A stretch of DNA of 64,000 bases. It comes from Anaerolineales bacterium. Its GTDB lineage: Bacteria > Chloroflexota > Anaerolineae > Anaerolineales > UBA11858. Positions within the stretch are counted from its first letter, which is position 1, and each line of letters begins with the position of its first letter. The translations under genes were made by a program, and so were the position numbers. The notes under the pieces are model-generated. The model was not told where the DNA came from, did no database searches, and was given only the letters and a program-made list of their open reading frames with translations. This document shows positions 7,055 to 25,214 of the stretch, one piece after another. The DNA lies in NCBI GenBank assembly GCA_046483045.1, contig JAWODY010000036.1, forward strand, positions 1,848-65,847, written 5' to 3'.

Positions 7055-7996
7055 TTATCCTTTCTTGGACACGGTGTAGGCCCAGATGAGGAAAGAACCC
7101 AAAATCAAAGCTGGGAAGATCATCAATCCCGCATCGGGGCCAAAAATTCCTCCCGTCCACAAGGCAGGACCGTCCAGTTGTTGGATCAGCAAACCAGGCA
7201 CTTGAAGGCCATTGACCCGGAATCCAAAGAGGTTTCCCCCAAATACTTTCCAACCCAAGTGAAGCCCCAGCGGCAGCCACAACTGCCCCGAGGAAACCAG
7301 GGCATACCCATAGAAGAGCCCCAACACAAATAAGGCTGCCAAGGCTCTGACTGAAAAACCAGTACTGAATACATGGATGAGGGAGAAAACCAGGGCTGAT
7401 ATCCCTATCGCCCAATAATCCTGCAAGCCATCCTGAATATTCTTGAGCCAGTAGCCCCGAAAGAGTATTTCTTCCTGCCAGGCTTTCGCTAAAAAGACGA
7501 TCAGGAAAATAAACCAGAAGAGCGTGAATTGCTGGGGGACATCCACATTCCAGGCAAATCCCTGGAAATTCACCCAATCCAGGGCCCAAAAAACGAGAAA
7601 CAAAAATCCCGCTATCAAGAATGAAATCCCCATGCCCACTGCGAAATCAAGCCCGGCTTTGCTGTCAACGTGCAAACCAAGGCTCTTAAATGAACGATCG
7701 TCGAGAATCACCCGGGCGGCGAATACCGTCCCTATGATCCCCAAGAAGAGGATGAATCGGGAAATATAAAAATCATAAGAAAAAAGCGCAGGAAAATTGG
7801 AATACAGGTAATAGCGGAGGATGAACTGCATTCCCAATATAAAAGCGACCAAAACCAGGGACTGCAAGAGCAGGCGCCAGCCTGTCCTCAGGCGCCTCTC
7901 TTCCGGGGAGAAAAAGAGGGTATCTATAAAAGATCTATCTCTTTCGGCACGGTCTTGCTCCGGTGTCTCTTCAATCTGCGGATCATGTTCAGCCAT
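7055..7996 (-). CDS. CPBP (CAAX/Abi) intramembrane glutamic protease
   Basis: EEILFRGY, FSLIH and HLGW motifs; multiple TM segments. Confidence 0.88.
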   Translation of the reverse strand: MAEHDPQIEETPEQDRAERDRSFIDTLFFSPEERRLRTGWRLLLQSLVLVAFILGMQFILRYYLYSNFPALFSYDFYISRFILFLGIIGTVFAARVILDDRSFKSLGLHVDSKAGLDFAVGMGISFLIAGFLFLVFWALDWVNFQGFAWNVDVPQQFTLFWFIFLIVFLAKAWQEEILFRGYWLKNIQDGLQDYWAIGISALVFSLIHVFSTGFSVRALAALFVLGLFYGYALVSSGQLWLPLGLHLGWKVFGGNLFGFRVNGLQVPGLLIQQLDGPALWTGGIFGPDAGLMIFPALILGSFLIWAYTVSKKG

Positions 7997-8266
7997 AACT
8001 GGTTTCCTTTTCCTTATCATGTGTTTTTCTTAGGACACTGTGCCTATTCTAACATGGATAGACTTTCAGCGAGGGGGATGATCAACCACAGCCGCGGAAA
8101 TGGGAGAGCGTTTTCATGGAGGAAAAAGTGAGAAAAGGCCCCCATCCTCTCTGGAAATCAAATGTGGATTTCTTCCCCTGAAAACATGAAAGATGGTAGG
8201 TACGCGGAACTCACGGAAAGAGTAGAATAGACTTGGAGAATCATTCGCAAAACAAGGACCAGGAAT

Positions 8267-8947
8267 ATGGACCCTGTAATTTTAGATGACATCCCCTTCA
8301 ACCCTTCATACGAGCAGCTCGCCGAAGAGATGCGCGTCAGAAAGGGCAGCCCCCATGCGCTCGACCTGCAGCGTCTGCTGGAGGAAGCGAAGGAAATCGC
8401 GCGGCCCAAAGCTTTATATAAACTGGCTCCTATCGAAGAAAAAGGAGAAGATCTTGTGGTCCTGGATGGGACCCCTTTCCACAGCCGGGTTCTGCGCGTG
8501 AATCTTGATCCAGTCCACCGCGCCTTCCCTTATATATCTACCTGCGGCCGGGAGCTTAATGAGTGGAAAACCTCTCAAGAGGATACCATCTTAAACTACT
8601 ACGCGGGGGCCATCAACGACATCGCGCTGCGCGCTGCCCGGGATTATTTACAGGACCATCTCAGAGAAACCTACCAATTAGAAAAATCTTCCTATATGAG
8701 TCCCGGATCTTTGAAAGATTGGCCTCTCACCGAACAAAGAGCGCTGTTCAAGCTGCTGGGAAATCCCGAGAAATCGATCGGCGTTAATCTCAGTCCCAGC
8801 CTGATGATGATCCCAAGTCAAACCGTTTCCGGCATCCGCTTTTCTTCCGAAAAAGATTTCCAGAACTGCCAGCTCTGCCCCATGGAAAACTGCTCCCACC
8901 GCAAAGCGGCATACGACGAAGAACTCTACAAAAAACAATTTTCCTGA
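8267..8947 (+). CDS. Stand-alone B12-dependent methionine synthase activation-domain-like protein
   Basis: MSPGSLKDWPLTEQRALF, IGVNLSPSLMMIPSQTVSGI and C-terminal CQLCPMENCSHR match this family as recalled. Confidence 0.75.
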   Translation: MDPVILDDIPFNPSYEQLAEEMRVRKGSPHALDLQRLLEEAKEIARPKALYKLAPIEEKGEDLVVLDGTPFHSRVLRVNLDPVHRAFPYISTCGRELNEWKTSQEDTILNYYAGAINDIALRAARDYLQDHLRETYQLEKSSYMSPGSLKDWPLTEQRALFKLLGNPEKSIGVNLSPSLMMIPSQTVSGIRFSSEKDFQNCQLCPMENCSHRKAAYDEELYKKQFS

Positions 8948-9269
8948 CTGATCAGACCCCGGATGGAATCAACCACTTCGTTACCCGGGTCCCATTCTCC
9001 CTTTCGGGTAGCAATCCCCTGGGATGTAAACCGGTTGTAAGGTGACATCCGGGAGTTTTCCCCTATAAACATGCTCAGAAGCCCCCAAAACGTGTATATC
9101 CCACCATGCTGAGCGCTCTGAAATTGGCCGCAGAGCTGCCGTTTTTGCTATACTGGGGTGAAACCGGATAAAGAAGATGAACTGGAATGAACTTTCTGAA
9201 TCAATGGCTAACATTTTTTGTGTGCATGATCTGGAGATAGGCTAAGAGTGACAATCAGGGAAGACAAAC

Positions 9270-10145
9270 ATGCTGTCCCAATCATTCAAATATCAAGAAG
9301 CATTTTCTAGAAATATTGGCTTGATCACAGAAGAGGAACAAGAGCGTTTACGCAGTGCGTCAGCCGCCATCCCCGGAATGGGAGGAATGGGAGGAGCACA
9401 TGCCCTCACTTTGGCCCGGCTTGGTATTGGCCAGCTGACCATGGCGGATTTTGATCAATATGAAGTCGTCAATTTCAACCGCCAGGTGGGTGCAACTGTG
9501 AACACGGTGGGGAAGCGCAAACTGGATGTGATGGTGAAGCGGGTCAAAGAAATTAATCCAGAAATAGAGTTAAGGACCTTTGATGAAGCGATCACCTCCC
9601 AGAATGCGGGGGCCTTCCTGGAGGACGCAGATATTCTACTAGACGGCCTGGACTTTTTTTCTTTTGAAAACCGCCGGCATCTTTTCAATACCGCACGCAA
9701 GAAGGGGCTTCACGTCGTTTCCAGCGGTCCTATTGGGTTCAGTGCCATCCTGCAAATTTTCTCCCCGCACGGGATGAGCTTCGACCGCTACTTTGCCATC
9801 CAGGATGGGATGACCAAAGAGGAAAAGCTGCTTTCCTTCCTGGTCGGGATCGCGCCGGGCGGAACTCATCTGAGTTATATCAATTCGGATAAGGTCAGCC
9901 TGGGTGATGAAGCAGGGCCCTCTTTAGGACTGGCCGTCCAGATGGCAGCTGGATTGGCCGCCGCTCAGGTGGGAAAGATTCTGCTTGATCGGGGGCCCGT
10001 CCCCTGTGTTCCTTACTACTTCCAGGTGGACGCCTACACCATGCAGTGCAAAAAAGGACGGCTGTGGTGGGGCAACCGTAATCCCATTCAACGCCTGAAA
10101 CTGTGGTACGTAAAACGGCTACTTCAAGCCCAGCGTGAATCTTAA
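9270..10145 (+). CDS. ThiF/MoeB/HesA-family adenylyltransferase (no CxxC zinc motifs)
   Basis: GMGGMG, DFD..EVVNFNRQ, K and DGLD motifs; only two Cys residues, not in CxxC arrangement. Confidence 0.9.
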   Translation: MLSQSFKYQEAFSRNIGLITEEEQERLRSASAAIPGMGGMGGAHALTLARLGIGQLTMADFDQYEVVNFNRQVGATVNTVGKRKLDVMVKRVKEINPEIELRTFDEAITSQNAGAFLEDADILLDGLDFFSFENRRHLFNTARKKGLHVVSSGPIGFSAILQIFSPHGMSFDRYFAIQDGMTKEEKLLSFLVGIAPGGTHLSYINSDKVSLGDEAGPSLGLAVQMAAGLAAAQVGKILLDRGPVPCVPYYFQVDAYTMQCKKGRLWWGNRNPIQRLKLWYVKRLLQAQRES

Positions 10146-10238
10146 TCACCACCCATACGCCCATCCGGAGGCAAACTCAACACTGACCTCGGTGTTCTAA
10201 ATTGAATCCGCCCATTCTGTCACCTCCAGAGGATCACG

Positions 10239-11867
10239 ATGTTAGAAAGCATCAAAAAGTGGCTTCTGAAAAAATATTTGGGGAAATACCGCCTCCCCCG
10301 GGACATGGTCCGGGACGCTTTCCAGCGCTACCCCGATCGAGCAGCCCTTGTTACAGGACGGGGCCGGCTCATTTTTGCGGATCTCGAGAAGCGGGTCTAC
10401 TCCCTGGTCCAGGGCCTCGAAGCCCGGGGGATTAATAAGGGGGACCGGGTCTTCACCCTCCTGCCTGACGGCTGGGAACAGATTGAGGTCCGCCTGGCCT
10501 GTTTTGAATCCGGGTTTATCCTCACCCCTTTTCACAGCGCACACCCCAGGTCAGCCATCATGAAAGCAGCCCAATTGGCCACACCTACGGCCCTCATCGT
10601 TGACCCTGAGATCGGGCAGAAAGCGGCCCGGGATCTTGCTCAAAAGAACCCGGAGATGGTGGTCATATCCACCGGGGAGGAGGTCGAGTACGAAAGCATG
10701 CTGGAAACCCACAGACCCATCCCATCCAATCACACCATCCACCCGCAAGATGCAGCGAGTCTGGGATTCACATCCGGGACGACCGGGAAACCCAAAGCGC
10801 TCTTTACCAACCATGAGGTGATTGTCACCAGTTTGAAATTAACAGCCACCAACGTGTCGGTCACCCCCGGCCAGAGAGACACCTTTATGCTCGGCATCCC
10901 CCTGGTCGGGGCGGGCAGCGGCGTGGTGCTCCCCATGCTGTTTTCCGGCTCCACCCTGGTCATCCCCCCGGCATACACCGCCCGGCAGGTCATGGCAGCC
11001 ATCATCGAACACCGGGCCACCCGCACCTTTCTCACGCCCAGCCTGCTGATCGATTTCCTGGACATGCCGGAGGCAGACCTCAGTTCCCTCCGGAACGTGA
11101 TCTACGGCACAGCGCCCATGCCTGTCCCCAAGTTAGAAGAAGCCATCCGGCGCTGGGGACCGATTTTCCAGCAGGGTTACGGGATGGCGGAGGTGCTGCC
11201 GCCCGTCAGCCTGCTGCAAATGGATGACCACGGGACGCAGGACAATCCTGCCCCCCGCCCGGTCCTGCGCTCGGTGGGAAAAATCGTCCCCGAGGTTAAG
11301 GTCAAGATTGTCGACTCCCAGGGTGAGAAAGTGGAACCAGGGGAAAAGGGAGAAATCCTGATCGACAGCCCCACCACCTTTAACGGCTACTGGAAAGCCC
11401 CGGAGCTCAATCAGCGCGTGCTCCGCGACGGCTGGTACCACACCCGGGATATGGGCAGCATTCACCCCCAGGGATGGCTCCATGTCCTGGGACGCAGGGC
11501 TGACATCATCCACCAGAATGGAGAGGAAATATTCCCCTTACAGGTTGAAGAAATAGCCCACGACCACCCGGCCGTCAAAGAAGCCTGCCTGGTGGGTGAC
11601 TCCAAAAATCAAACTATGATCCTGGCCGTCTCCCTCCGCCAAAATCACCGCGGGGATGACCCCCGGAATGTGGCGGAGGATATCAAGCGTTGGATGGCAA
11701 AAAATCTTCCTGAAGCGAATCAACCCGATCAGGTAGCCATATTTAACGAGCTGCCGCGCAGCTATCTTGTCAAAGTGCTTCACAGGGAAGTCCGGGAACG
11801 GATCCTGGATCCCGAAATGGACAACAAGGAGAGAACCTATGAGCGCCTACTCACCACCACACCTTGA
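10239..11867 (+). CDS. AMP-binding (acyl-CoA/acyl-AMP ligase, ANL superfamily) enzyme
   Basis: FTSGTTGKPK P-loop, QGYGMAE, GWYHTRD, GRRADII. Confidence 0.9.
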   Translation: MLESIKKWLLKKYLGKYRLPRDMVRDAFQRYPDRAALVTGRGRLIFADLEKRVYSLVQGLEARGINKGDRVFTLLPDGWEQIEVRLACFESGFILTPFHSAHPRSAIMKAAQLATPTALIVDPEIGQKAARDLAQKNPEMVVISTGEEVEYESMLETHRPIPSNHTIHPQDAASLGFTSGTTGKPKALFTNHEVIVTSLKLTATNVSVTPGQRDTFMLGIPLVGAGSGVVLPMLFSGSTLVIPPAYTARQVMAAIIEHRATRTFLTPSLLIDFLDMPEADLSSLRNVIYGTAPMPVPKLEEAIRRWGPIFQQGYGMAEVLPPVSLLQMDDHGTQDNPAPRPVLRSVGKIVPEVKVKIVDSQGEKVEPGEKGEILIDSPTTFNGYWKAPELNQRVLRDGWYHTRDMGSIHPQGWLHVLGRRADIIHQNGEEIFPLQVEEIAHDHPAVKEACLVGDSKNQTMILAVSLRQNHRGDDPRNVAEDIKRWMAKNLPEANQPDQVAIFNELPRSYLVKVLHREVRERILDPEMDNKERTYERLLTTTP

Positions 11868-13218
11868 GTTGGGGGATGAAAAGCTGCCCCTGGGACTGAA
11901 GCTTGTTTATGCTGTGGGAAACCTGGGATTCACGCTGCTCATCTCAGCCATTGGTTTCTTCCTGCTCATTTTTTATACCGATGTGGCCCATATCCCGCCC
12001 GCCCTGGCCAGCACAGCATTATTGGTGGGAAAAGTGTGGGACATCGTCAACGATCCCCTCTTCGGATGGATTTCAGACCGCACAAAATCGCCTCTGGGCC
12101 GGCGCCGTGTATACCTGATCTACGGCGCGCTGCCGCTGGCTCTGGTCTCTTTTGCCCTCTGGGCCGTTCCCAGGGGATTGTCCTCCACCACAGCCTTCCT
12201 GTGGATCGTGCTCAGTTACGCGCTGTTTGATACCTTCTTCACCATCACCAATGTCCCCTTTAATTCTCTCACCGCGGAGCTGACCAAGGACTACGATGAG
12301 CGCACCAGCCTGATGGCCGTGGCTTCCATCGGGGCGGTCGTCGGCTACCTGTTGGGGGCTGTCCTGCCCCCCATGATCACAGGAGGATTTGAGGATGCTT
12401 CAACCGGTTACCTGGTGATGGGCGCTGTGTTTGGTGGAATCGTGGGTTTGAGCATCGCCCTTGTCGCCTGGCGGGTGAGAGAACCCTCGCAGGACAGGCA
12501 ATTGACAGCTGGGTTGCCCATTCTGGCCTCCATCCGGGCCACCTTCAGCAATAAACCATTTATTATGCTCCTGACTGCCTTTGCCATTGTGCGCCTCAGT
12601 TTCACCCTCATGCAGTCCAGCGTTCCTTATTACATCCGGTACTACCTCGGCGCGCCGGGCCGCATGTCGCTCATCCTGGCGCTGCTGATGGTGACGGTGG
12701 GCGTCTTCGTATATTTCTGGAAATGGGTCAGCGATAAAACCAGCAAAAGCAAAGCCTACGCCTTCGGGCTCCTGATCATGGGCAGCGGCGCCCTCGCCAC
12801 CTTCCTCATTCAAGAAGGACAGCTGATGTTCATGAACATCGCGGTCATCGTCATCGGCTTTGGCCTCTCCTCCCACTGGGTCGCGCCCTATGCCATGCTT
12901 CCCGATGTCATTGAACACGATGAAGCAGAAACCGGAGAACGGCGGGAAGGGATGTACTACGGGGTGTACGGATTAGTTGATAAAATAATGCGTACGCTGG
13001 GTGTGTTTCTGGTGGGTATGGGGTTAGACCTGGTGGATTATGTGCCCAATGCCGCGCAATCCGCGCGCTCGCTGCTCGGCATCCGCTTGATCTTCGGCCC
13101 CATCCCGGCCCTGCTCTTGATCTTCGTCTTTCCCCTGCTGCTGCGGTATCCCGTCACCCGCCAATCCCACACCGAGCTCCGGAAAGACCTGGCGCGCAAC
13201 AAACGAACTGAGGATTGA
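11839..13218 (+). CDS. MFS transporter, glycoside-pentoside-hexuronide (MelB-like) family
   Basis: WDIVNDPLFGWISDRT..GRRR, ELTKDYDERTSL, DVIEHDE..TGERREG. SD aaggag before ATG 11839; overlaps the ligase stop. Confidence 0.9.
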   Translation: MSAYSPPHLELGDEKLPLGLKLVYAVGNLGFTLLISAIGFFLLIFYTDVAHIPPALASTALLVGKVWDIVNDPLFGWISDRTKSPLGRRRVYLIYGALPLALVSFALWAVPRGLSSTTAFLWIVLSYALFDTFFTITNVPFNSLTAELTKDYDERTSLMAVASIGAVVGYLLGAVLPPMITGGFEDASTGYLVMGAVFGGIVGLSIALVAWRVREPSQDRQLTAGLPILASIRATFSNKPFIMLLTAFAIVRLSFTLMQSSVPYYIRYYLGAPGRMSLILALLMVTVGVFVYFWKWVSDKTSKSKAYAFGLLIMGSGALATFLIQEGQLMFMNIAVIVIGFGLSSHWVAPYAMLPDVIEHDEAETGERREGMYYGVYGLVDKIMRTLGVFLVGMGLDLVDYVPNAAQSARSLLGIRLIFGPIPALLLIFVFPLLLRYPVTRQSHTELRKDLARNKRTED

Positions 13219-13225
13219 AAAAGCC

Positions 13226-14041
13226 ATGACAGAACGAGAAGCCCGCCACCTTCACCCTGGACAAGGCCCGGTCAAACTCCCCTTTGAGGAGGGCAGAGAG
13301 GTTGTCCTCAAAGCAGGCCACCTGCGCAAAACATATCAAGTCGGGGATGTCGAGGTCCCGGCTTTGCGCGGCGTGGACCTGACGGTGAAAAAGGGCGAGT
13401 TTGTGGCCATCATGGGCCCTTCTGGCTCGGGAAAATCAACCCTGCTGCACCTGATCAGCGGCCTGGACCGGCCCAGCGGTGGAGATGTGATGCTGGCTAG
13501 ACAGCGGCTGTCAGACCTGGATGATGAAGCCTTGAGCATCCTCCGGCGCCGCAAGGTCGGTTTCGTGTTTCAAACCTTCAATCTCATCCCCATGCTGACC
13601 GCCAGGGAAAACGTGATGCTGCCGCTGCTGGTGGACGGCCGGGACCCGGACCAGGCCCAGGAACGCATGGAAAATTTGCTCCAATTGGTCCTGATCGCGG
13701 ACAGAAAAGATCACAAGCCCGATCAGCTTTCCGGCGGCCAGCAGCAGCGGGTGGCCATCGCCCGGGCCCTGATCACGGAGCCGGACATCGTCATGGCCGA
13801 TGAGCCCACCGGAAACCTGGACACCAAATCAGGCACCGTGGTCCTGGATCTGCTGCGCCGTGTGCGGGAGGGCTCCGGGACTTCGATCGTCATGGTCACC
13901 CACGACCCCCGCTCTTCCTCCTATGCGGACCGGGTGGTATACCTGCGGGATGGAAAGGTGATCGACGAGTCCTACAACCACGGCGATGAGACCGATACCC
14001 GGCGCATTGCCAGGCGCCTGGCCTACCTGGAGGAGATCTAG
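13226..14041 (+). CDS. ABC transporter ATP-binding protein (LolD/MacB type)
   Basis: [31 protein letters not shown]. Confidence 0.95.
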
Positions 14042-14043
14042 CC

Positions 14044-16662
14044 ATGGCTGCCTGGCGGCGTTTTTGGACCAATATCAGGCTGGCCCTGCGCAGCATGGCG
14101 GGGCATAAGACCCGCACGGCTTTGACCGCTCTGGGCATTTCCCTGGGCGTGGCTGTCGTGCTGGGCGTAAACATCACCAACGCTACCCTGATGGACTCCT
14201 TCAACAATGTCTTCGATGAAGCGGGAGGAAAGGCGGACCTCACCGTGCAGGATCAGGCCCGCAACGCGGACGGCTTCCCGGCATCCATTTTTCAGGAGGC
14301 CCGTGAGGTGGAAGGAATCACCGCCGCAGCCCCTTCCGTGATGTCCCGTTCCCTGGTGGCTGATGAACTCAGCGGTTGGCAGGCCAGCACCGGGGTGATG
14401 GGCACGCTCTCGGCGGGCAGCACGCTGATCACCATCGGCGTCGATCCGGAGATGGACCGCACAGTGCGGGACATTCATCTCACCGACGGCACCTACCTGA
14501 AACCTGGAGAGGACCGCTATGTGATGGTGCTGGGGGAATCCGTGGCCGAGGAAAAAGGATACGGCCTGGGGGAAGATATTCCCATTCTTTTGCCCGGCAG
14601 AAACGCCCCCTCGGAGTTCAAAATCATCGGCATCATCGACCCATCCGGAGCCGGTTTAATCAACGGAGGATCGATCGCGTTCATCCCTCTCAACGTGGCC
14701 CAGGAACTGATGGACCGCGCCGGCCGCTACGACCAGATCGACATCGTCGTCAACGATGAGATCGCGGAATCAGACACGGCCTTATCCGAGCTCAAGGAAG
14801 ACCTCTCCCGCCAGCTTGGAGAAGGGGTGCGGGTGGTCTACCCCGGCGCCCGGGGGGAAGAGCTCGCCAAACGCATGGCCTCCTACCGGCTGGGCCTGGA
14901 CCTGTTCAGCACGGTAGCCATGTTCATCGGCGGATTTCTAATTTACAACACATTTGCCATCAACGTGGCCGAGCGCACCCGGCAAATCGGCCTTTTCCGC
15001 ACCATCGGCATGACCAAAAAAGGGGTCCTGGTCCTGATCTTCACGGAAGCTGGCCTGCTGAGCGTTGTGGGGTCGGGAATTGGACTTTTGATGGGTATCG
15101 GCATGGCCCGGGGCATGTCCACCACCGTGGGATTCGCAGCCGGGACCACGGTCAATTCCCTCACCTTGCCCATGAAAGGTTTTGTGCGCAGTTTGTCCAT
15201 CGGCCTCCTGGTGACGATCGTCTCCGCCCTGTGGCCCGCCCTGCAGGCCATCCAGATCTCCCCCCTGGAAGCGCTGGGGGTCAAAGCCCAATCCCGGGGC
15301 ACCACCTGGCGGGATATCAGCTGGAAATTCGGTCCCGGTTTGTTATTTGTGGGCTGGGTCGTCTTTAACGACCTTCCCCTGCGGGATTCCATCGCCTGGA
15401 CCATCGTCAGCGTCGCTGCCATTTTATTCCTCTTCGGCGCGGCCTTCAGCGTGCCCATCGTGGACCGCTTCCTGGCCAACCTGCTGCAGCCTTTCATCCG
15501 ATCTGTGTTTGGGGGGGTGGGGAAAATTGGCGCATCCAATCTGAAACGGGCCCAGAGCCGGACTCTGCTGACCATCGCCACCCTGATGCTGGGCATTGCT
15601 GTCAACATTGGCACCGTTTCGCTGGGTGACAGTTTCCGATATGATCTCAGCCGCTGGACAAAAGCAGCCACAGGCGGGGATTTGATCGTGCAGTCCCCCA
15701 CCCGGCTGGATGATAATCATGCCCAGCGGCTTGCTGCCCTGGACGGGGTGGACACCGTCAGTCCAGAACGCAGTATTGAGGTCTGGACCAGCGGGGAAAA
15801 AGTGGAAGACGAGATCGTTTTCATCGCCATAGACCCCCAGACGCGGGGCGAGATCAGCCAGTTCCTGTTTGAGGAACCCGGTAAGGACGCCCAGCCCCGG
15901 GTCTTTCAGCAGCTGCAGCAGGGGGATCGGGTGATCATCAGCACCAGCATGGCCGAGCGCTACGACCTGGAGGTAGGGGAAGACATCACCCTGGAAACCC
16001 CGCGCGGGTTGGCGGATTTTGAGGTCATCGGCGTGGTACTGGATTTCAGCGGTAACGGGCTGATGGTGTACGGGAACTGGACAGATCTTTACCGCTATTT
16101 CGGGGTCAATACTGTGGACCGCTTTCTGCTTTCCGTCCATCCGGGGTATAATCCACAGGCAGTCGGCCGGGCGATTGAAGACATGCTGGGCACCCGGTTG
16201 AACCTGACCGTGGATGTCGTCGACAAGCTGCTGGAAGATGTCCTGGAAATCACAGACCGGTCATTCGTGATGTTCGACACCCTGGCTTTGCTGGTCGTCA
16301 GCGTCTCTGCCATGGGCGTGGTCAACACCATGGCCATCAGCGTCATGGAGCGGAGGCAGGAGCTGTCCATGCTGCGCAGCATCGGCATGACCCGCGCCCA
16401 GCTCCGGAAGATGATATTGGCAGAAGCGGGAGCGCTGGGTTTGATGGGCGGGGTTCTTGGTTTAGGCCTGGGAGTTGTCCTGGCCCAGATGTTTATTGTC
16501 GTCGTGCAGCATTTGATGGATTACGAGCTGACCAATCAGCTTTCTACCCGGGCCATCATCAGCAGCGCTGTCATCGCCCTGGTCATCTCTCAGGCAGCGG
16601 CGTTGATCCCTGCCATCCGGGCTTCACGGCAGCCGATCATTAAGGGACTGGCAGATCAATAA
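14044..16662 (+). CDS. ABC transporter permease with two FtsX/MacB repeats
   Basis: RTALTALGISLG, ERTRQIGLFRTIGMT and ERRQELSMLRSIGMT; two large extracytoplasmic loops. Confidence 0.92.
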   Translation: MAAWRRFWTNIRLALRSMAGHKTRTALTALGISLGVAVVLGVNITNATLMDSFNNVFDEAGGKADLTVQDQARNADGFPASIFQEAREVEGITAAAPSVMSRSLVADELSGWQASTGVMGTLSAGSTLITIGVDPEMDRTVRDIHLTDGTYLKPGEDRYVMVLGESVAEEKGYGLGEDIPILLPGRNAPSEFKIIGIIDPSGAGLINGGSIAFIPLNVAQELMDRAGRYDQIDIVVNDEIAESDTALSELKEDLSRQLGEGVRVVYPGARGEELAKRMASYRLGLDLFSTVAMFIGGFLIYNTFAINVAERTRQIGLFRTIGMTKKGVLVLIFTEAGLLSVVGSGIGLLMGIGMARGMSTTVGFAAGTTVNSLTLPMKGFVRSLSIGLLVTIVSALWPALQAIQISPLEALGVKAQSRGTTWRDISWKFGPGLLFVGWVVFNDLPLRDSIAWTIVSVAAILFLFGAAFSVPIVDRFLANLLQPFIRSVFGGVGKIGASNLKRAQSRTLLTIATLMLGIAVNIGTVSLGDSFRYDLSRWTKAATGGDLIVQSPTRLDDNHAQRLAALDGVDTVSPERSIEVWTSGEKVEDEIVFIAIDPQTRGEISQFLFEEPGKDAQPRVFQQLQQGDRVIISTSMAERYDLEVGEDITLETPRGLADFEVIGVVLDFSGNGLMVYGNWTDLYRYFGVNTVDRFLLSVHPGYNPQAVGRAIEDMLGTRLNLTVDVVDKLLEDVLEITDRSFVMFDTLALLVVSVSAMGVVNTMAISVMERRQELSMLRSIGMTRAQLRKMILAEAGALGLMGGVLGLGLGVVLAQMFIVVVQHLMDYELTNQLSTRAIISSAVIALVISQAAALIPAIRASRQPIIKGLADQ

Positions 16663-16676
16663 GGAGCGCAGTCATC

Positions 16677-17924
16677 ATGAACGCAAAGCGAATCCTGATT
16701 GGATTGATGATCATTCTCATCCTATCCTATTTTGGGTTCAGGGGATATCAAGAATATCTGGCCCCTGTTGAACCCACGCCAACCCCAGCTGCCATCGGTA
16801 CGCAGGTGATCACGGTGAACGCGGAAGGCCGAGTGGTCCCCCTCACCCATCTCGGCCAGGCCTTTGAACTTTCCGGCCGCATTTCTGAGATTCACGTCAG
16901 CGAGGGGGATCTGGTGGAGGAAGGTGACACCCTGCTCAGCCTGGAAAAAGACAGCCTGCAGGCCCAGGCTGCGCAAGCGAAAGCAGCCCTGAAAGCTGCC
17001 CGGGCCCAATTAGAGATGCTGCCTGACGCGGCCAGCGAGGAACGGGAAGAACAGGCGGAGGCCCAGGTGGAACAGGCGCAAGCATCCCTGGAGGCCGCTC
17101 AGATCCAGTTAAAGAAAACCGATCTGATAAGCTCTCTCACCGGCGTCGTCACCGCCATTGATATCGAAAAGGGCCAGGTCGTGGAAGCTGGCATGCCTGT
17201 GATCATCGTGGCCGACACCAGCCGCTGGCAGGTAGAAACGCTGGATCTTCTCGAGGAGGATGTCGTCAATATCCAGGTCGGACAACCCGCCACTGTGAAA
17301 TTTGCCGCTCATCCCGACAGCGCCCTGGAAGGAAGAGTGAGCAAGATCGCCCGCAGCGCATCCAGCTACCAGGGAAACGTCACCTACACGGTGACCGTAG
17401 ACCTGCCCGATCCCGGAGATCTATCCCTGCAGTGGGGGATGACATCCTTTGTGGAAATTGACCCTGAATCATCGACCATCCCTCCCCTCTTTTCCCCCAC
17501 ACCCACACCGGAACCGACAGCAGCGCCCACACAGACGCCCACACCCACTCCCGAACCTGAGGAAGACGAAGAAAGTGATAAAGGGGATATCCCGGCATCT
17601 TACACTGTGCGCCGGGGTGAATTTGTGTACTGCCTGGGGCGGCGTTTTGATATTAAACCAGCGGACATCCTGAGCTACAACGGCCTCCCCCCCGGATCGC
17701 AACTGTTCCCCGGGCAAATCATTAACCTCCCCTCCCGGGCTCGTCCCTTCCCGGTCACCCGGGCCTTGGCGCCCCACCCCACCACATATATCGTGCAGCC
17801 CTTTGATACCCTTCCCATCATCGCCTGTAAATTCGGGGATGTGACCCCGGGAGAAATTGCCCGGGAAAACGACCTTTCGCCTGACGCGCTCCTCACCCCG
17901 GGCCAGATTCTGGATATCCCTTAA
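16677..17924 (+). CDS. HlyD/MFP periplasmic adaptor fused via a Pro/Thr linker to two LysM domains
   Basis: N-terminal TM; lipoyl-like halves (GRISEIHVSEGD, GVVTAIDIEKGQ); PTPTP linker; YTVRRGE...GQIINLP and YIVQPFD...GQILDIP LysM-like repeats. Confidence 0.85.
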   Translation: MNAKRILIGLMIILILSYFGFRGYQEYLAPVEPTPTPAAIGTQVITVNAEGRVVPLTHLGQAFELSGRISEIHVSEGDLVEEGDTLLSLEKDSLQAQAAQAKAALKAARAQLEMLPDAASEEREEQAEAQVEQAQASLEAAQIQLKKTDLISSLTGVVTAIDIEKGQVVEAGMPVIIVADTSRWQVETLDLLEEDVVNIQVGQPATVKFAAHPDSALEGRVSKIARSASSYQGNVTYTVTVDLPDPGDLSLQWGMTSFVEIDPESSTIPPLFSPTPTPEPTAAPTQTPTPTPEPEEDEESDKGDIPASYTVRRGEFVYCLGRRFDIKPADILSYNGLPPGSQLFPGQIINLPSRARPFPVTRALAPHPTTYIVQPFDTLPIIACKFGDVTPGEIARENDLSPDALLTPGQILDIP

Positions 17925-17941
17925 ATTCTGCTGGTGTAAAT

Positions 17942-17975
17942 AAAAAAGCCCCTGCTCATTCGAAGGGGCTTTTTT
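17942..17975. terminator. Bidirectional intrinsic terminator
   Basis: aaaaaAGCCCCT-loop-AGGGGCTttttt between convergent genes. Confidence 0.85.
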
Positions 17976-18133: not shown

Positions 18134-18370
18134 TTACCGGTCATTCTCTTCGCTCTCTTTTTCCCCCAAAACTTTGCGTAATGTTTGAAAACGGCCGGGT
18201 TTGGAGGACTTTCTCCCGCCCAACCTGTTAAGCAGAAAACTTAAAAAGATGAAACCAACCCCGCCCACACAAAAATAAAAGTGGTCCAAACCGAGTGAGG
18301 GAGAGGCGATAAAAACCACCAACAATAACAAACCGGACAACAAAAAGAAACTTGCCAAATGCTTCAACAT
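18134..18370 (-). CDS. Small membrane protein (78 aa, 2 TM)
   Basis: Two hydrophobic stretches and a basic tail; follows rpoD in the same orientation. Confidence 0.65.
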   Translation of the reverse strand: MLKHLASFFLLSGLLLLVVFIASPSLGLDHFYFCVGGVGFIFLSFLLNRLGGRKSSKPGRFQTLRKVLGEKESEENDR

Positions 18371-18416
18371 AAGCTATTTATGTGACCCCCGGGTTGAGAA
18401 GAAGATAGGCTGGGGA

Positions 18417-22062: not shown

Positions 22063-25000
22063 TTAGAAACCCTCCAGGCGGGACATATCCACCACGCCGT
22101 CCGCAAGATCAGCGATGCGCTGCAGAAGGCCCAGCCGGTTTCGGCGCAGATCCTCATCTTCCGCCATCACCAATACATGATCGAAGAAGCGCGTGATGTT
22201 GGGGATGAGGGGTAGGAAACTCTGCAAGAAATCATCCACATCGCCGGTCCCCCGATCCACGTCCTCCGTCTCCCGGAGAGCCTGATACAGTGCCTGCTCT
22301 TCCTCTTCGACGAAATCATCGGGGTCCACAGGGTATTTACCTTCAAGATCCCGGGTGATTCGCACACACCGGGCATAGCTGTCCAGGATGTGTTCCCAAT
22401 CTTCCTTTTTAACCCACACGCTCAAGGATTCCACGGCCCTGTAGGTGCCGGCAGGATTTTCTCCCTGGGCAGCGACCACGGCGTCCACCACATCATACGC
22501 ATACCCCTGATCCCGGAGCATGTTATGCAGCCGGTCTCGGATAAAGTTCAGGCAGTCAGATTTCGACTCATCAGAGGCGGTCAGGGGGAGTTCTTGGGCT
22601 GCCTCTTCAATCCCCTCCTGGAGATCAAAATCCAAATCCCAGGCTATCAAATTGCCCACCAGGCCAAGCGCTGCCCGGCGCTGCCCGAAAGGATCCTTGC
22701 TGCCTGTGGGGATCACGCCAACTGCGAATAAGCCCACCAGCGTATCCAGACGGTCAGCGATGCTGAGGGCCAATCCGGGTTTCGTGGAAGGTGGGGCATC
22801 CCCGGCAGAACGGGGGCGATAATGTTCGCGAATCGCAGTCGCCACCTCCTTTGATTCCCCGGAATGGAGCGCATAATAATATCCCATCACGCCCTGAAGC
22901 GATGTCATTTCAACCACCATTTGGGTGGCCAAATCCGCCTTGCATAATGCTGCCGCCCGCCGGGTGACGTCCATTTCTGTTTCTGTGAGTTCCAGCTCTT
23001 CCCCCAGGCGGCCGACCAACTGCCGGATGCGGTCGGTCTTCTCCCGCATGGATCCCAGGTCTTCCTGAAAGGTGAGCAGGTCCAGATCCTCAACAAAGGC
23101 CTCCAGGTCTTTTTCTTTGTCCGCCTGGACGAAATACGCGGCATCAGAGAATCGGGCCAGGATCACATCCTCATTGCCCTGGGTTACGGCGCGATATTTC
23201 TCCGTGGCTGCTTCTTGACCCGGTTTATTGGCTACCGTGATGAAATTCGGCAGCAGTTCTCCCTCTTTTTCCACCGGAAAATACCGCTGGTGCTTTTTCA
23301 TCACCGAAATTAAGACTTCCCGGGGCAGATCCAGGTATTGGGGATCGAATTCCCCCATCAAGGCCAGAGGGGTCTCCACCAGATGGGTCACTTCAGTGAG
23401 CAGTTCCGGATCGGTAGGGATCTCCCCCTCCACTTCCGCGGCCAGCGTTTGCATTTGATTCACTATATCCTGCTTTCGTTCTTCCTGGTCCAGGAGAATG
23501 CCCTGATCCTCCAAAGCCCGGAAATACGCAGCCGGGGATTGAACCAAAATCCTTTTTGGATCCATAAACCGCAGGCCCCAGGTATACGGTTGGGAAACCA
23601 GGCCGGCATAAGAAAAGGGCAAGAGAAGGTGATCATGATAGGCGAGCAGCCAGCGCACGGGACGGGAGAATGATACTTGACTCTCATTCCAGCGCATGGT
23701 GAGCTCAAAACCGATTTCCGCGATCAGGTCCGGCAGTACCTCAGCAAGCACCATCCCGGCTGGCCGCCCCTGCTCTCGTTCCACAGCGACCACATATTCT
23801 CCCCCGTCCATTTCCCGAACTTCCAGCTCCTCCACCGATACCCCCTTGGACCGGGCGAACCCCTGTGCAGCCTGGGTGGGATTTCCCTCGGGGTCATAAG
23901 CCCTGTCCGCGGGAGGACCTTTGACCAGCTGTTCCAGATCCGTCTGCCGGGGAGCAAGTTCTTCCACGGTGACGACAAGCCGCCGTGGGGTGGCCATAAC
24001 CTTCATATCCCCATGAGGCAAACGGTGTTCTTCCAAATATCCAGGGACCAGCTCTCTCAGCTGGTCCAGGGCATCCTCCACATCGCCCGGAGGAAGCTCT
24101 TCCGTCCCGATCTCTAATAAGAAAGGAGCCGCCTCCTGGGGAAGATTTTCTGTGGGGAAATCGCTTCCCCCTTTTGCTTCCAGCCCCTTTCCCACTTTCT
24201 CCTCCAGCCAGGGGTACTCCAAGGCCTGGCGCTTTTCAAGATAAGCGTCTGCCACCTGACGGGAAAGGTCGCGCATGCGGTTGAAAAACCCCTGCCTTTC
24301 CGTCACCCCCACCGCGCCCCGCGTGTCCAGGACGTTAAAAGTATGGGAGCATTTTAAAACGTAATCATGGGCTGGCAGGACCTGATGTTCTCGCAGGCAG
24401 CGTTGTGCCTCCGCTTCATATCGATCATAGAGCTCCCGCAGCCGATCCACATCTGCCAGCTCAAAAGCATATTTGCTGAATTCCCGCTCACTCTGCAGCT
24501 GTATGCCGCCGTACGAATGTTCATCGTTCCAGCGGATGTCCCGGAAATCACGGACCCGCTGCAGGGCCATGGCAATGCGTTCCAACCCGTAGGTCAATTC
24601 CACGGAAACGGGATTGAGCTCCTGTCCTCCCGATTGTTGAAAATATGTGAACTGCGTGATCTCCAGCCCATTCAACCAGACCTCCCAACCCAAGCCCCAG
24701 GCGCCCAGCACCGGTGATTTCCAGTTATCCTCCACAAAGCGAATGTCATGAATCTCCGGGTCAATGCCCAGCGCTTCCAGGGAATCCAGATACACCTCCT
24801 GGGGGTTGCCGGGGTCAGGTTTCAATATCACCTGGTATTGGATATGCTGGTAAAACCGATTCGGGTTTTCTCCGTAACGCCCATCATCGGGTCGGATGGA
24901 AGGCTCCACGTATCCCACCCGCCAGGGTTCAGGCCCCAAGACACGCAGGGAGGTAGCCGGGTTCATCGTCCCGGCGCCGACCTCGGTGTGATAAGGCTGC

Positions 25001-25077
25001 CAGATCAAACATCCCCGGTCAGCCCAAAATTTCTCAAGGGTCATGATGATGGATTGAAAATCAAGTGCGTTCTCCAT
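22063..25077 (-). CDS. glyQS: Glycine-tRNA ligase, fused alpha+beta subunits
   Basis: Alpha part ([27 protein letters not shown]) continuous with beta part ([29 protein letters not shown]). ggag SD before ATG 25077. Confidence 0.96.
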
Positions 25078-25129
25078 AACCTTCTCCAAACCTTCCCGAC
25101 GGCAAATCGAATATAAATCCATTTTTGAT

Positions 25130-25214
25130 AAAAGCGGTTGACATCCCATGACTCAAGGCTGGAAACACCGCTTGCTGCCCGATGGTGCTTTTTCTCCCGC
25201 GTTTGAAAATTATA
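25130..25214 (-). promoter_or_regulatory. Extended -10 promoter and structured leader of glyQS
   Basis: TGaTATAAT (TATAAT at 25214-25209 on the minus strand), followed by two mutually exclusive hairpins sharing GGUG. Confidence 0.45.

Follow-up and report, generated by a model that had tools for sequence, protein, structure and literature searches.

A six-gene operon of Anaerolineales joins a putative OxzB/TyzB-type ThiF protein to an ANL ligase and two transport systems, and may make and export amino-acid-derived amphiphiles

Small-molecule ThiF-like enzymes are known from one type of pathway, in which an N-acyl synthase, a ThiF protein and a flavin oxidase give rise to oxazolones or dehydro-amino-acid lipids. 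Here we describe an operon from an Anaerolineales bacterium of the Chloroflexota that encodes a ThiF protein apparently related to these enzymes together with an ANL-superfamily ligase, a membrane carrier and a tripartite pump. The operon lies in a stretch of 64,000 nucleotides (nt), called the window throughout, which covers positions 1,848 to 65,847 of the forward strand of contig JAWODY010000036.1 (assembly GCA_046483045.1); all coordinates below are those of the window.

Architecture of the operon

Six co-oriented open reading frames (ORFs) on the + strand occupy positions 9270-17924, with gaps of 93, -29, 7, 2 and 14 nt between them, and are followed by a terminator:

9270-10145, + strand: ThiF-like adenylating enzyme, predicted cyclase of the OxzB/TyzB type, ANL-linked subclade; 291 amino acids (aa); PRK08223
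10239-11867, + strand: ANL-superfamily adenylate-forming ligase; 542 aa; Pfam AMP-binding and AMP-binding_C; predicted coenzyme A (CoA) ligase or amide synthetase
11839-13218, + strand: GPH/MFS_2 carrier; 459 aa; 29-nt overlap with the ligase gene; TIGR00792
13226-14041, + strand: ATP-binding cassette (ABC) ATPase of the LolD/MacB/DevA type; 271 aa; Pfam, NCBIfam
14044-16662, + strand: duplicated MacB-type permease; 872 aa; Pfam MacB_PCD and FtsX twice in a single chain
16677-17924, + strand: membrane-fusion protein (MFP) adaptor with two C-terminal LysM domains; 415 aa; Pfam HlyD_D23, HlyD_3 and two LysM
17942-17975, no strand assigned: bidirectional intrinsic terminator ending the operon; inverted repeat of two perfect 12-nt arms around a 10-nt loop, with A and T runs

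A preliminary description of this DNA had proposed six co-oriented genes with these gaps and a single terminator, and the ORF coordinates together with the inverted repeat confirm that layout. Its domain assignments (ThiF, ANL, GPH-MFS, ABC, FtsX and MFP-LysM) were reproduced with Pfam and NCBIfam. Its statement that the operon has no acyl carrier protein, no polyketide synthase (PKS) or nonribosomal peptide synthetase and no ThiS/MoaD-like frame was borne out by the ORF list and the Pfam scan; nor does the ORF list contain a small carrier frame ending in GG, the two GG-ending frames both lying antisense within genes. The terminator arms are AAAAAAGCCCCT (17942-17953) and AGGGGCTTTTTT (17964-17975), and a consensus scan, which takes loops of at most 8 nt, missed the element because its loop measures 10 nt. 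All six gene starts are preceded by a Shine-Dalgarno-like motif. For the carrier we use the ATG at 11839, which follows AAGGAG within the end of the ligase gene and yields the 459-aa protein; the longest frame begins at a TTG at 11767.

Kinship of the ThiF protein

The NCBIfam model NF006077 (PRK08223), whose cut-off is 266 bits, is passed by the window ThiF with 372 bits. ThiF-nitroreductase fusions at loci L052 (387 bits) and L084 (395 bits) also pass it, as does the ThiF of Stieleria mannarensis (415 bits), and the second halves of the fusions match the Acg-family flavin mononucleotide oxidoreductase model as well as the C-terminal part of the Rv1355c-family model. Judged by this shared model, by the fused or adjacent oxidases and by published cluster descriptions, the window ThiF appears to be kin of the OxzB and TyzB cyclases that act on N-acyl amino acids. 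ATP-dependent cyclisation of N-acyl amino acids has been shown for OxzB, a ThiF-nitroreductase that forms the oxazolone pathway of Pseudoalteromonas rubra with the N-acyltransferase OxzA (de Rond et al.), for TyzB, the ATP-dependent cyclase among TyzA, TyzB and TyzC of Mycobacterium tuberculosis (Grigg et al.), and for TrzS, which accompanies TrzA in the same species (Kleetz et al.) and is only a distant relative of the window ThiF (72 bits, Rv1355c model). Clusters of an N-acyl synthase, a ThiF and a nitroreductase have been reported from Stieleria (S. neptunia and S. maiorica being described), Massilia and Thalassotalea (Sauer et al.). Among these stieleriacine, kyonggic acid and thalassotalic acid clusters, the ThiF of Stieleria mannarensis (L077) shares about 46% identity with the window protein, and its gene is accompanied by a nitroreductase, a methyltransferase and an N-acyl synthase. 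These partners are missing in the window; the products of such clusters are N-acyl dehydrotyrosines and depend on the oxidase.

All residues invariant in the family are found in the window ThiF (R14, G36/38/39/41, D60, D62, N70-R71-Q72, K84, D125 and D128), that is, the Arg finger, the GxGGxG, DxD and NRQ motifs, the Lys and the adenylation-motif Asp, the residue mutated in TrzS D217A, are intact. Its AlphaFold2 model (predicted local distance difference test 92) adopts an E1/ThiF fold that matches ThiF, MoeB, PaaA and AclA, with AclA (PDB 9EGB) as the top fold match. By sequence, the nearest solved structure is TcdA (3e-16), a tRNA t6A dehydratase that closes an oxazolone ring from the carboxylate of an N-carbamoyl amino acid; it differs in acting on tRNA, and the match is limited to the N-terminal Rossmann half.

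Two other roles of ThiF-fold proteins were considered and rejected. A sulfur-carrier role of the ThiS/MoaD kind finds no carrier ORF and no conserved Cys or CxxC zinc pairs in the family alignment, and the ThiF/MoeB models score at most 94 bits against cut-offs of 159-650, with the TcdA and E1 models also far under theirs. A microcin-C-like (MccB) role finds no precursor, there being no conserved small ORF upstream, and no N-terminal peptide clamp, the Rossmann motif beginning at residue 36 of 291.

The family is widespread, with members at 42-53% identity in Planctomycetota, Thermodesulfobacteriota, Pseudomonadota, Nitrospirota and ANME archaea. It comprises 394 clusters (50% identity, E <= 1e-30), and the best 150 are, on a rough reading of lengths, mostly about 650-700 aa long. 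We clustered the neighbours in 80 genome loci of the family and named the recurrent ones with Pfam. They include FeeM-type N-acyl amino acid synthases, MMPL/RND exporters, LolA-like and DUF1302 proteins, a LolD-like ATPase with FtsX permeases, a methyltransferase, and a nitroreductase-like protein of about 360 aa that makes up the second half of the 680-aa fusions as well. These are the genes of the oxazolone and N-acyl-tyrosine pathways.

A ThiF clade with a ligase as partner

In a maximum-likelihood tree of 89 ThiF-family members and 3 outgroups, every ThiF linked to an ANL ligase falls into one clade (support 97/97), which is nested within the oxidase-linked family. Its members are the ThiF proteins of the window, of the congeneric genomes G023 and G018, and of loci L117, L113, L119, L070 (three tandem copies), L115 and L083, the last sitting at a contig end. 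We counted neighbours by locus, at 87 loci of which many have short flanks, with 9 inside the clade and 78 outside:

Nitroreductase partner: 0/9 inside, 54/78 outside (Fisher p 7.5e-5)
FeeM-type synthase: 0/9 inside, 43/78 outside (Fisher p 2.5e-3)
ANL ligase of the window type: 7/9 inside, 0/78 outside (Fisher p 6e-9)

These p-values describe the pattern and are no proof of it, as the loci share a phylogeny. The absence extends to whole genomes. Unlike OxzAB, TyzABC and TrzAS, the window operon and its genome carry neither a nitroreductase-type flavin oxidase nor a GNAT/FeeM-type N-acyltransferase: FeeM (PF21926) has no match in the window's genome, which is 91% complete, and an OxzB-type nitroreductase has no significant match there or in the congeneric genomes G023, G018 and G006. 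In place of the synthase the window has the ANL ligase, plus the MFS carrier and the MacB-type pump. From these genomic patterns it seems that the ligase occupies the usual place of the N-acyl synthase and that the oxidase is gone. The clade differs from the remaining family at no more than three alignment positions and retains every catalytic residue, so that the same kind of chemistry is to be expected in it.

The link between ThiF and ANL is found beyond the Anaerolineales operon. The two genes are adjacent in gammaproteobacterial L070, and L119 has the order LolA-like-ANL-ThiF-MMPL, i.e. a different exporter. L070 (4822-10550, a metagenome-assembled genome (MAG) of Methylophagaceae) carries three tandem ThiF paralogues of the clade, then ANL and MFS genes; by eye, the upstream gene reads as a TonB-dependent receptor and a gene on the opposite strand as an MFP. 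The multiple cyclases of L070 suggest several substrates or steps.

A separate observation concerns L115 (5780-10918, a MAG of Armatimonadota), whose ThiF is closest to that of L113 and lies a few kb downstream of moeA, moaC and a MoCF_biosynth gene; this proximity to molybdenum cofactor (Moco) genes may be coincidence or may reflect a different role.

FeeM and ThiF also occur together without a nitroreductase, at ten loci. In the Candidatus Thiodiazotropha loci L075, L094, L099, L101 and L108, a FeeM/GNAT-type synthase lies 1-35 nt from ThiF and no nitroreductase is within reach; these loci form a second oxidase-free lineage of the cyclase family.

The preliminary description knew of no characterised cluster with this layout. 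That does not stand for the ThiF family, which is characterised in OxzAB, TyzABC and TrzAS and inferred in the stieleriacine clusters; it does stand for the ANL-linked form without oxidase and synthase, which is undescribed. According to a 2025 review, no ThiF-like enzyme other than OxzB is known to have a small-molecule substrate, and a 2025 neighbourhood analysis of the family names only oxidase and acyltransferase neighbours.

Conservation and distribution of the gene set

The closest public record is L033, an Anaerolineales MAG (98% identity), and DNA of the source organism turns up in metagenomes from salt lakes, microbialites, tidal flats and sediments. Within the genus, a true ThiF orthologue is present in two of the 24 other genomes searched, G023 (84% identity) and G018 (74%). 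Both have all six genes in unchanged order, with different flanks in G018, and the fragmented genome G006 carries the permease; the block is patchy, being found in 3-4 of 25 genomes with the window's own included. In a sample of 400 other genomes of the phylum, the ThiF was not found at E <= 1e-50. In addition, the six-gene set stands in other orders on five further contigs, so that with G023 and G018 it is known from at least seven contigs of Anaerolineales type besides the window:

L117: ThiF-MarR-ANL-MFS-ABC-FtsX-MFP/LysM
L127: order as in L117; ThiF, MarR and MFS called in pieces; adaptor without LysM
L129: partial; ThiF, a 148-aa gene without assignment, then a gene truncated at the contig end
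L113 and L120: MarR-MFS-ANL-ABC-FtsX-ThiF-MFP/LysM; ThiF sits between permease and adaptor

Identities to the window proteins are as follows:

ThiF: L117 63%; L113/L120 59-60%
ANL: L117 61%; L113/L120 52-55%
MFS: L117 75%; L113/L120 55-56%
ABC: L117 66%; L113/L120 66-68%
FtsX: L117 68%; L113/L120 58%
MFP: L117 56%; L113/L120 47%

Five of the proteins are nearer in L117 than in L113/L120, the exception being the ABC ATPase, which is about equal. Apart from this ATPase, the set appears to diverge as a unit. The same six families thus stand together in three different gene orders, and a gene set kept through rearrangement is a classical sign of functional coupling. Co-occurrence in other genomes, the check that the preliminary description had proposed for its operon, was found in G023, G018, L117, L127, L113 and L120, where the six genes are inherited together. 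Comparative evidence of this kind argues that they form a real conserved operon, beyond a chance arrangement.

The operon resembles an accessory and probably transferred unit, being patchy in the genus, with its ThiF absent from the 400 phylum genomes, and GC-rich: it is the most GC-rich 8.6 kb of the window, with 58.3% against 53.1% elsewhere. Rather than a single indivisible pathway, it is a mosaic of three modules that also exist apart (ThiF, ANL-MFS and ABC-FtsX-MFP) and that were joined and retained in this lineage.

The ligase, the carrier and the pump

The ANL ligase has intact motifs A3 (TSGTTGKPK), A7 (the Asp), A8 (GRRAD) and A10 (PRSYLVK), and the A10 Lys is kept in 8/8 orthologues. 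It reaches no NCBIfam equivalog cut-off (best 292 bits against 476). Among solved structures it comes nearest to the CoA ligase FadD8, with 190 bits, followed by the amide-bond synthetase McbA (PDB 6SQ8) with 181 bits over residues 37-475. With McbA and ShABS it shares the core motifs, and it differs from them in being equally like FadD8 and in motifs of its own, an N-terminal F/Y-R-V/L-P-R-D and GIPLVGAGSG. The ligase could form amides, as the second of these structures, McbA, is an amide synthetase of the stand-alone kind.

Orthologues of the ligase at 42-59% identity are also found without ThiF, and a comparison of the two homologue lists shows at least 20 protein clusters in which ANL and MFS homologues share a contig. 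At L130 the pair overlaps by 4 nt and comes after a BenE-type benzoate carrier; L122 has ANL alone. At L121 and L128 (ANL 49% identical, no ThiF), ANL lies between a LolA-like gene and a methyltransferase, with ABC, DUF1302(SPOR) and two FtsX genes upstream, and in L121 this block is followed by genes resembling fatty acid synthases or PKS, an NAD_binding_4 reductase and an aldehyde-decarbonylase-like gene, a setting that looks like a context of lipid or hydrocarbon export. The annotation of a 784-kb contig of the amoeba Naegleria lovaniensis includes an ANL homologue of 43% identity (P0230), which may be a transfer or a contaminant.

The carrier passes both TIGR00792, with 273 bits where 231 are required, and PF13347 (2.5e-92). 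Among solved structures, the lysophosphatidylcholine symporter MFSD2A matches it best (5.5e-49) and MelB less well (1.5e-34).

For the pump, the nearest solved structures are MacB, the Streptococcus pneumoniae Spr0694-0695 type and LolC in the case of the permease, and the MacA, EmrA and Spr0693 types in the case of the adaptor. No equivalog of LolCDE, MacB or DevABC reaches its cut-off, and the assignment of the triad as a MacB-type tripartite ABC efflux pump is for this reason a predicted one at family level only. With MacAB-TolC, Bacillus subtilis YknXYZ and S. pneumoniae Spr0693-0695 it shares an ATPase, an FtsX/MacB_PCD permease and an adaptor in the same order. It differs from them in its tandem-duplicated permease (872 aa), in the two LysM domains of its adaptor (kept in L113, L117 and L120, missing in L127), in having no gene for an outer-membrane channel, and in standing in a biosynthetic context. 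The ATPase is 56-60% identical to those of stand-alone ABC-FtsX-MFP triads, which occur in other families of the order with about 40% permease identity.

Upstream region and transcripts

Two candidate control elements precede the operon:

9025-9040, + strand: direct repeat TGTAAACCGGTTGTAA (TGTAA-N6-TGTAA), candidate regulator binding site conserved upstream of ThiF
9146-9154, + strand: candidate extended -10 promoter element TGcTATACT, about 115 nt 5' of the ThiF start

The direct repeat TGTAAACCnnTTGTAA has a single match in the window (0.09 expected by chance) and is kept upstream of ThiF in G023 and G018, despite the different upstream gene of G018. The block TTTTTG(C/T)TATACT is common to the window, L033, G023 and G018, and repeat and TGnTATACT element lie 115-245 nt upstream of ThiF. 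In the MarR-bearing lineages the upstream repeats differ from those of the window. No riboswitch or known RNA was found in the leader by Rfam matches down to E = 1.

Salt-lake metatranscriptomes contain contigs of about 99-100% identity (0-1 mismatches) within ThiF, ANL, MFS and FtsX, and one RNA contig (11666-11894) spans the ANL/MFS overlap. Transcripts are thus present at a low level in situ; this is presence in RNA libraries and no proof of one transcript, as the metatranscriptomes provide scattered low-depth contigs only for a test of co-transcription. A depth peak at 13718-13771 in three metatranscriptomes was rejected as expression; it consists of contigs of other organisms that share the conserved ABC signature and Walker B region at 90-95% identity.

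Proposed function and alternatives

With moderate confidence, we propose that the operon serves the biosynthesis and export of an amino-acid-derived amphiphile, in which the ANL ligase would make an N-acyl or N-aroyl amino acid, ThiF would activate or cyclise it, and the carriers would export it. In a first step, the ligase would adenylate a fatty or aromatic acid and couple it to an amino acid, by direct amide synthesis or through a CoA thioester; this is suggested by its displacing the synthase in otherwise similar neighbourhoods and by its kinship with amide synthetases. ThiF would then adenylate the free carboxylate of the conjugate, as its homologues do, which would lead to a saturated 5(4H)-oxazolone or to capture by another nucleophile. 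As there is no flavin oxidase, one would not expect the unsaturated oxazolone that the known pathways form. A saturated oxazolone is a reactive azlactone, which could be the product as it stands, could undergo racemisation or could acylate a further nucleophile. That the cyclase can act without the oxidase is indicated by the saturated cyclised species that appear with a TrzS oxidase mutant or at low oxygen (Kleetz et al.), and by the ten FeeM-ThiF loci without nitroreductase. In the preliminary description, two acids activated by the two enzymes were to be condensed. The example of OxzB, TyzB and TrzS makes it improbable that each enzyme has an acid of its own; more likely, ThiF would activate the carboxylate of what the first enzyme makes.

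In a third step, the MFSD2A-like carrier would move the single-chain amphiphile outward over the cytoplasmic membrane, and the MacB-type ABC/FtsX unit with its peptidoglycan-anchored (LysM) adaptor would expel it from the outer face through the wall. Pumps of this type, such as MacB and LolCDE, take their substrates from the outer face. Export is supported by the genomic company of both enzyme families, ThiF and ANL, which recur next to MMPL, LolA-like, DUF1302 and FtsX/ABC genes. A lipid exporter also adjoins the characterised pathways, tyz being flanked by mmpL9 in M. tuberculosis. The earlier suggestion of an exported acyl-amide or amphiphile accordingly fits as far as ThiF falls in a family of N-acyl-amino-acid cyclases, lipid exporters adjoin in many phyla and the carrier is nearest to MFSD2A.

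A narrower form of the proposal is tentative and, taken whole, somewhat unlikely. It would have the operon represent an oxidase-independent, ANL-primed branch of oxazolone biosynthesis, in which a stand-alone ANL amide synthetase replaces the GNAT-type synthase and ThiF yields either a reactive saturated 5(4H)-oxazolone or a different head group that is cyclic or activated, for instance a lactone or lactam. The product would be an exported signal or a donor of acyl-aminoacyl groups to the envelope, handed by an MFSD2A-like flippase to the wall-anchored MacB-type pump.

Several points weigh against biosynthesis and export. The proposed chemistry, the amide step included, is what we infer from relatives. 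L115 is a solitary member of the clade without ANL. Full six-gene instances are few and come mostly from related Anaerolineales, so that part of the co-occurrence is shared descent. The lone triads of the order would be a generic efflux module. RNA depths are low and may include DNA carry-over, which makes the transcripts thin evidence. Further points of this kind are also the ones that favour the main rival, uptake or salvage, which we consider unlikely. According to it, an amphiphilic or aromatic carboxylic acid, exogenous or derived from the envelope, enters through the MFSD2A-like carrier, the translationally coupled ligase traps it as acyl-CoA or adenylate, as in LplT-Aas and BaiG-BaiB, and ThiF and the pump handle a by-product. 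The ligase appears about equally near to FadD8, its best PDB match and a CoA ligase, and to McbA, and no sequence feature separates these options. ANL-MFS is a widespread two-gene module that exists without ThiF, and the L130 pair behind the BenE carrier fits uptake and activation equally well. MFSD2A and LplT are inward flippases. L113, L117 and L120 have MarR regulators, as is typical for catabolic or efflux operons that respond to acids. The coupling of the carrier to an adenylate-forming enzyme recalls LplT-Aas, but the PlsC acyltransferase domain that defines Aas is absent from the window ligase, and the carrier belongs to GPH/MFS_2, not to the LplT family. Moreover, no β-oxidation or acyltransferase gene follows, and elsewhere the ThiF and ANL families are tied to exporters and not to catabolic genes. 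Uptake or salvage would also leave unexplained why an OxzB-type cyclase and a MacB-type exporter are inherited together in three orders.

Defence is quite unlikely. Here the triad, like YknXYZ or Spr0693-0695, would expel foreign amphiphiles such as the N-acyl amino acids of neighbours, and ThiF and ANL would modify or inactivate them. The occurrence of the triad alone in related genomes as a generic efflux unit and its solved relatives, which are drug and peptide efflux pumps, are in keeping with this idea, as is the patchy, GC-rich block, which resembles an acquired accessory trait; N-acyl tyrosines of Planctomycetota have been reported to be antimicrobial. No known resistance mechanism involves a ThiF cyclase, however, and the ThiF family is otherwise found in producer clusters, adjoining N-acyl synthases.

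That the genes have no joint function, being two or three independent units (ThiF, ANL-MFS, the ABC pump) adjacent on an acquired island, is very unlikely. Each module is indeed found separately elsewhere and the composition of the block is slightly atypical, but this does not account for the three gene orders, for the insertion of ThiF between permease and adaptor in L113 and L120, for the recurrence of ThiF-ANL adjacency in L070 and, with another exporter, in L119, or for the tight gaps and the single terminator. A classical E1-like role, with ThiF adenylating the C-terminus of a ThiS/MoaD-type carrier or of a microcin-C-like precursor exported by the MFS carrier, is extremely unlikely: the modelled fold is clearly E1/ThiF, a ThiF-like enzyme and an MFS pump are likewise found together in microcin C clusters, and the Armatimonadota homologue lies near Moco genes, yet the carrier and precursor frames, Cys and zinc motifs, peptide clamp and model scores discussed above all speak against it.

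Significance

The enzyme family and the pump types are already known. What the publications consulted on this chemistry do not describe is a clade of ANL-linked ThiF proteins without oxidase and synthase, tied to an MFSD2A-like carrier and a LysM-anchored MacB pump; in the supported subclade that the operon defines, other genes stand for the two canonical partners. If biosynthesis and export is the correct reading, an ANL enzyme would here be the source of N-acyl or N-aroyl amino acids, the cyclase would have a role independent of the oxidase, and these metabolites would have dedicated export machinery, which bears on their purpose. Should the oxidase-independent branch exist, Chloroflexota would have a new class of secreted lipoamino-acid metabolites, and there would be two routes in nature by which N-acyl amino acids are made. 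The proposed pair of amide formation and carboxylate activation would offer enzymologists a compact two-enzyme system, and the widespread ANL-MFS gene pair gains a functional lead.

Neighbouring genes

A divergent gene for an Rce1/CPBP-type intramembrane protease lies upstream of the cluster in the window (7055-8020, - strand), in L113 (574-1512) and in L120 (5053-5976), with a DUF72 gene beside it in the latter two. It was rejected as a conserved seventh gene, tblastn showing no orthology between the window and L113/L120, and its recurrence in three lineages may be coincidence. The 226-aa gene at 8267-8947 (+ strand) was likewise rejected as a member of the operon; it is kept only in G023 (62%) and L033 and is absent from G018, L117 and L113. 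Its product weakly matches the activation domain, which binds S-adenosylmethionine, of B12-dependent methionine synthase. Downstream, between the operon terminator and rpoD, a frame of about 78 aa (18138-18371, - strand) with two hydrophobic stretches (MLKHLASFFLLSGLLLLVVF...) may encode a small membrane protein. Finally, the gene at 22063-25149 (- strand) encodes the alpha and beta subunits of glycyl-tRNA synthetase fused into one protein of 1028 aa.

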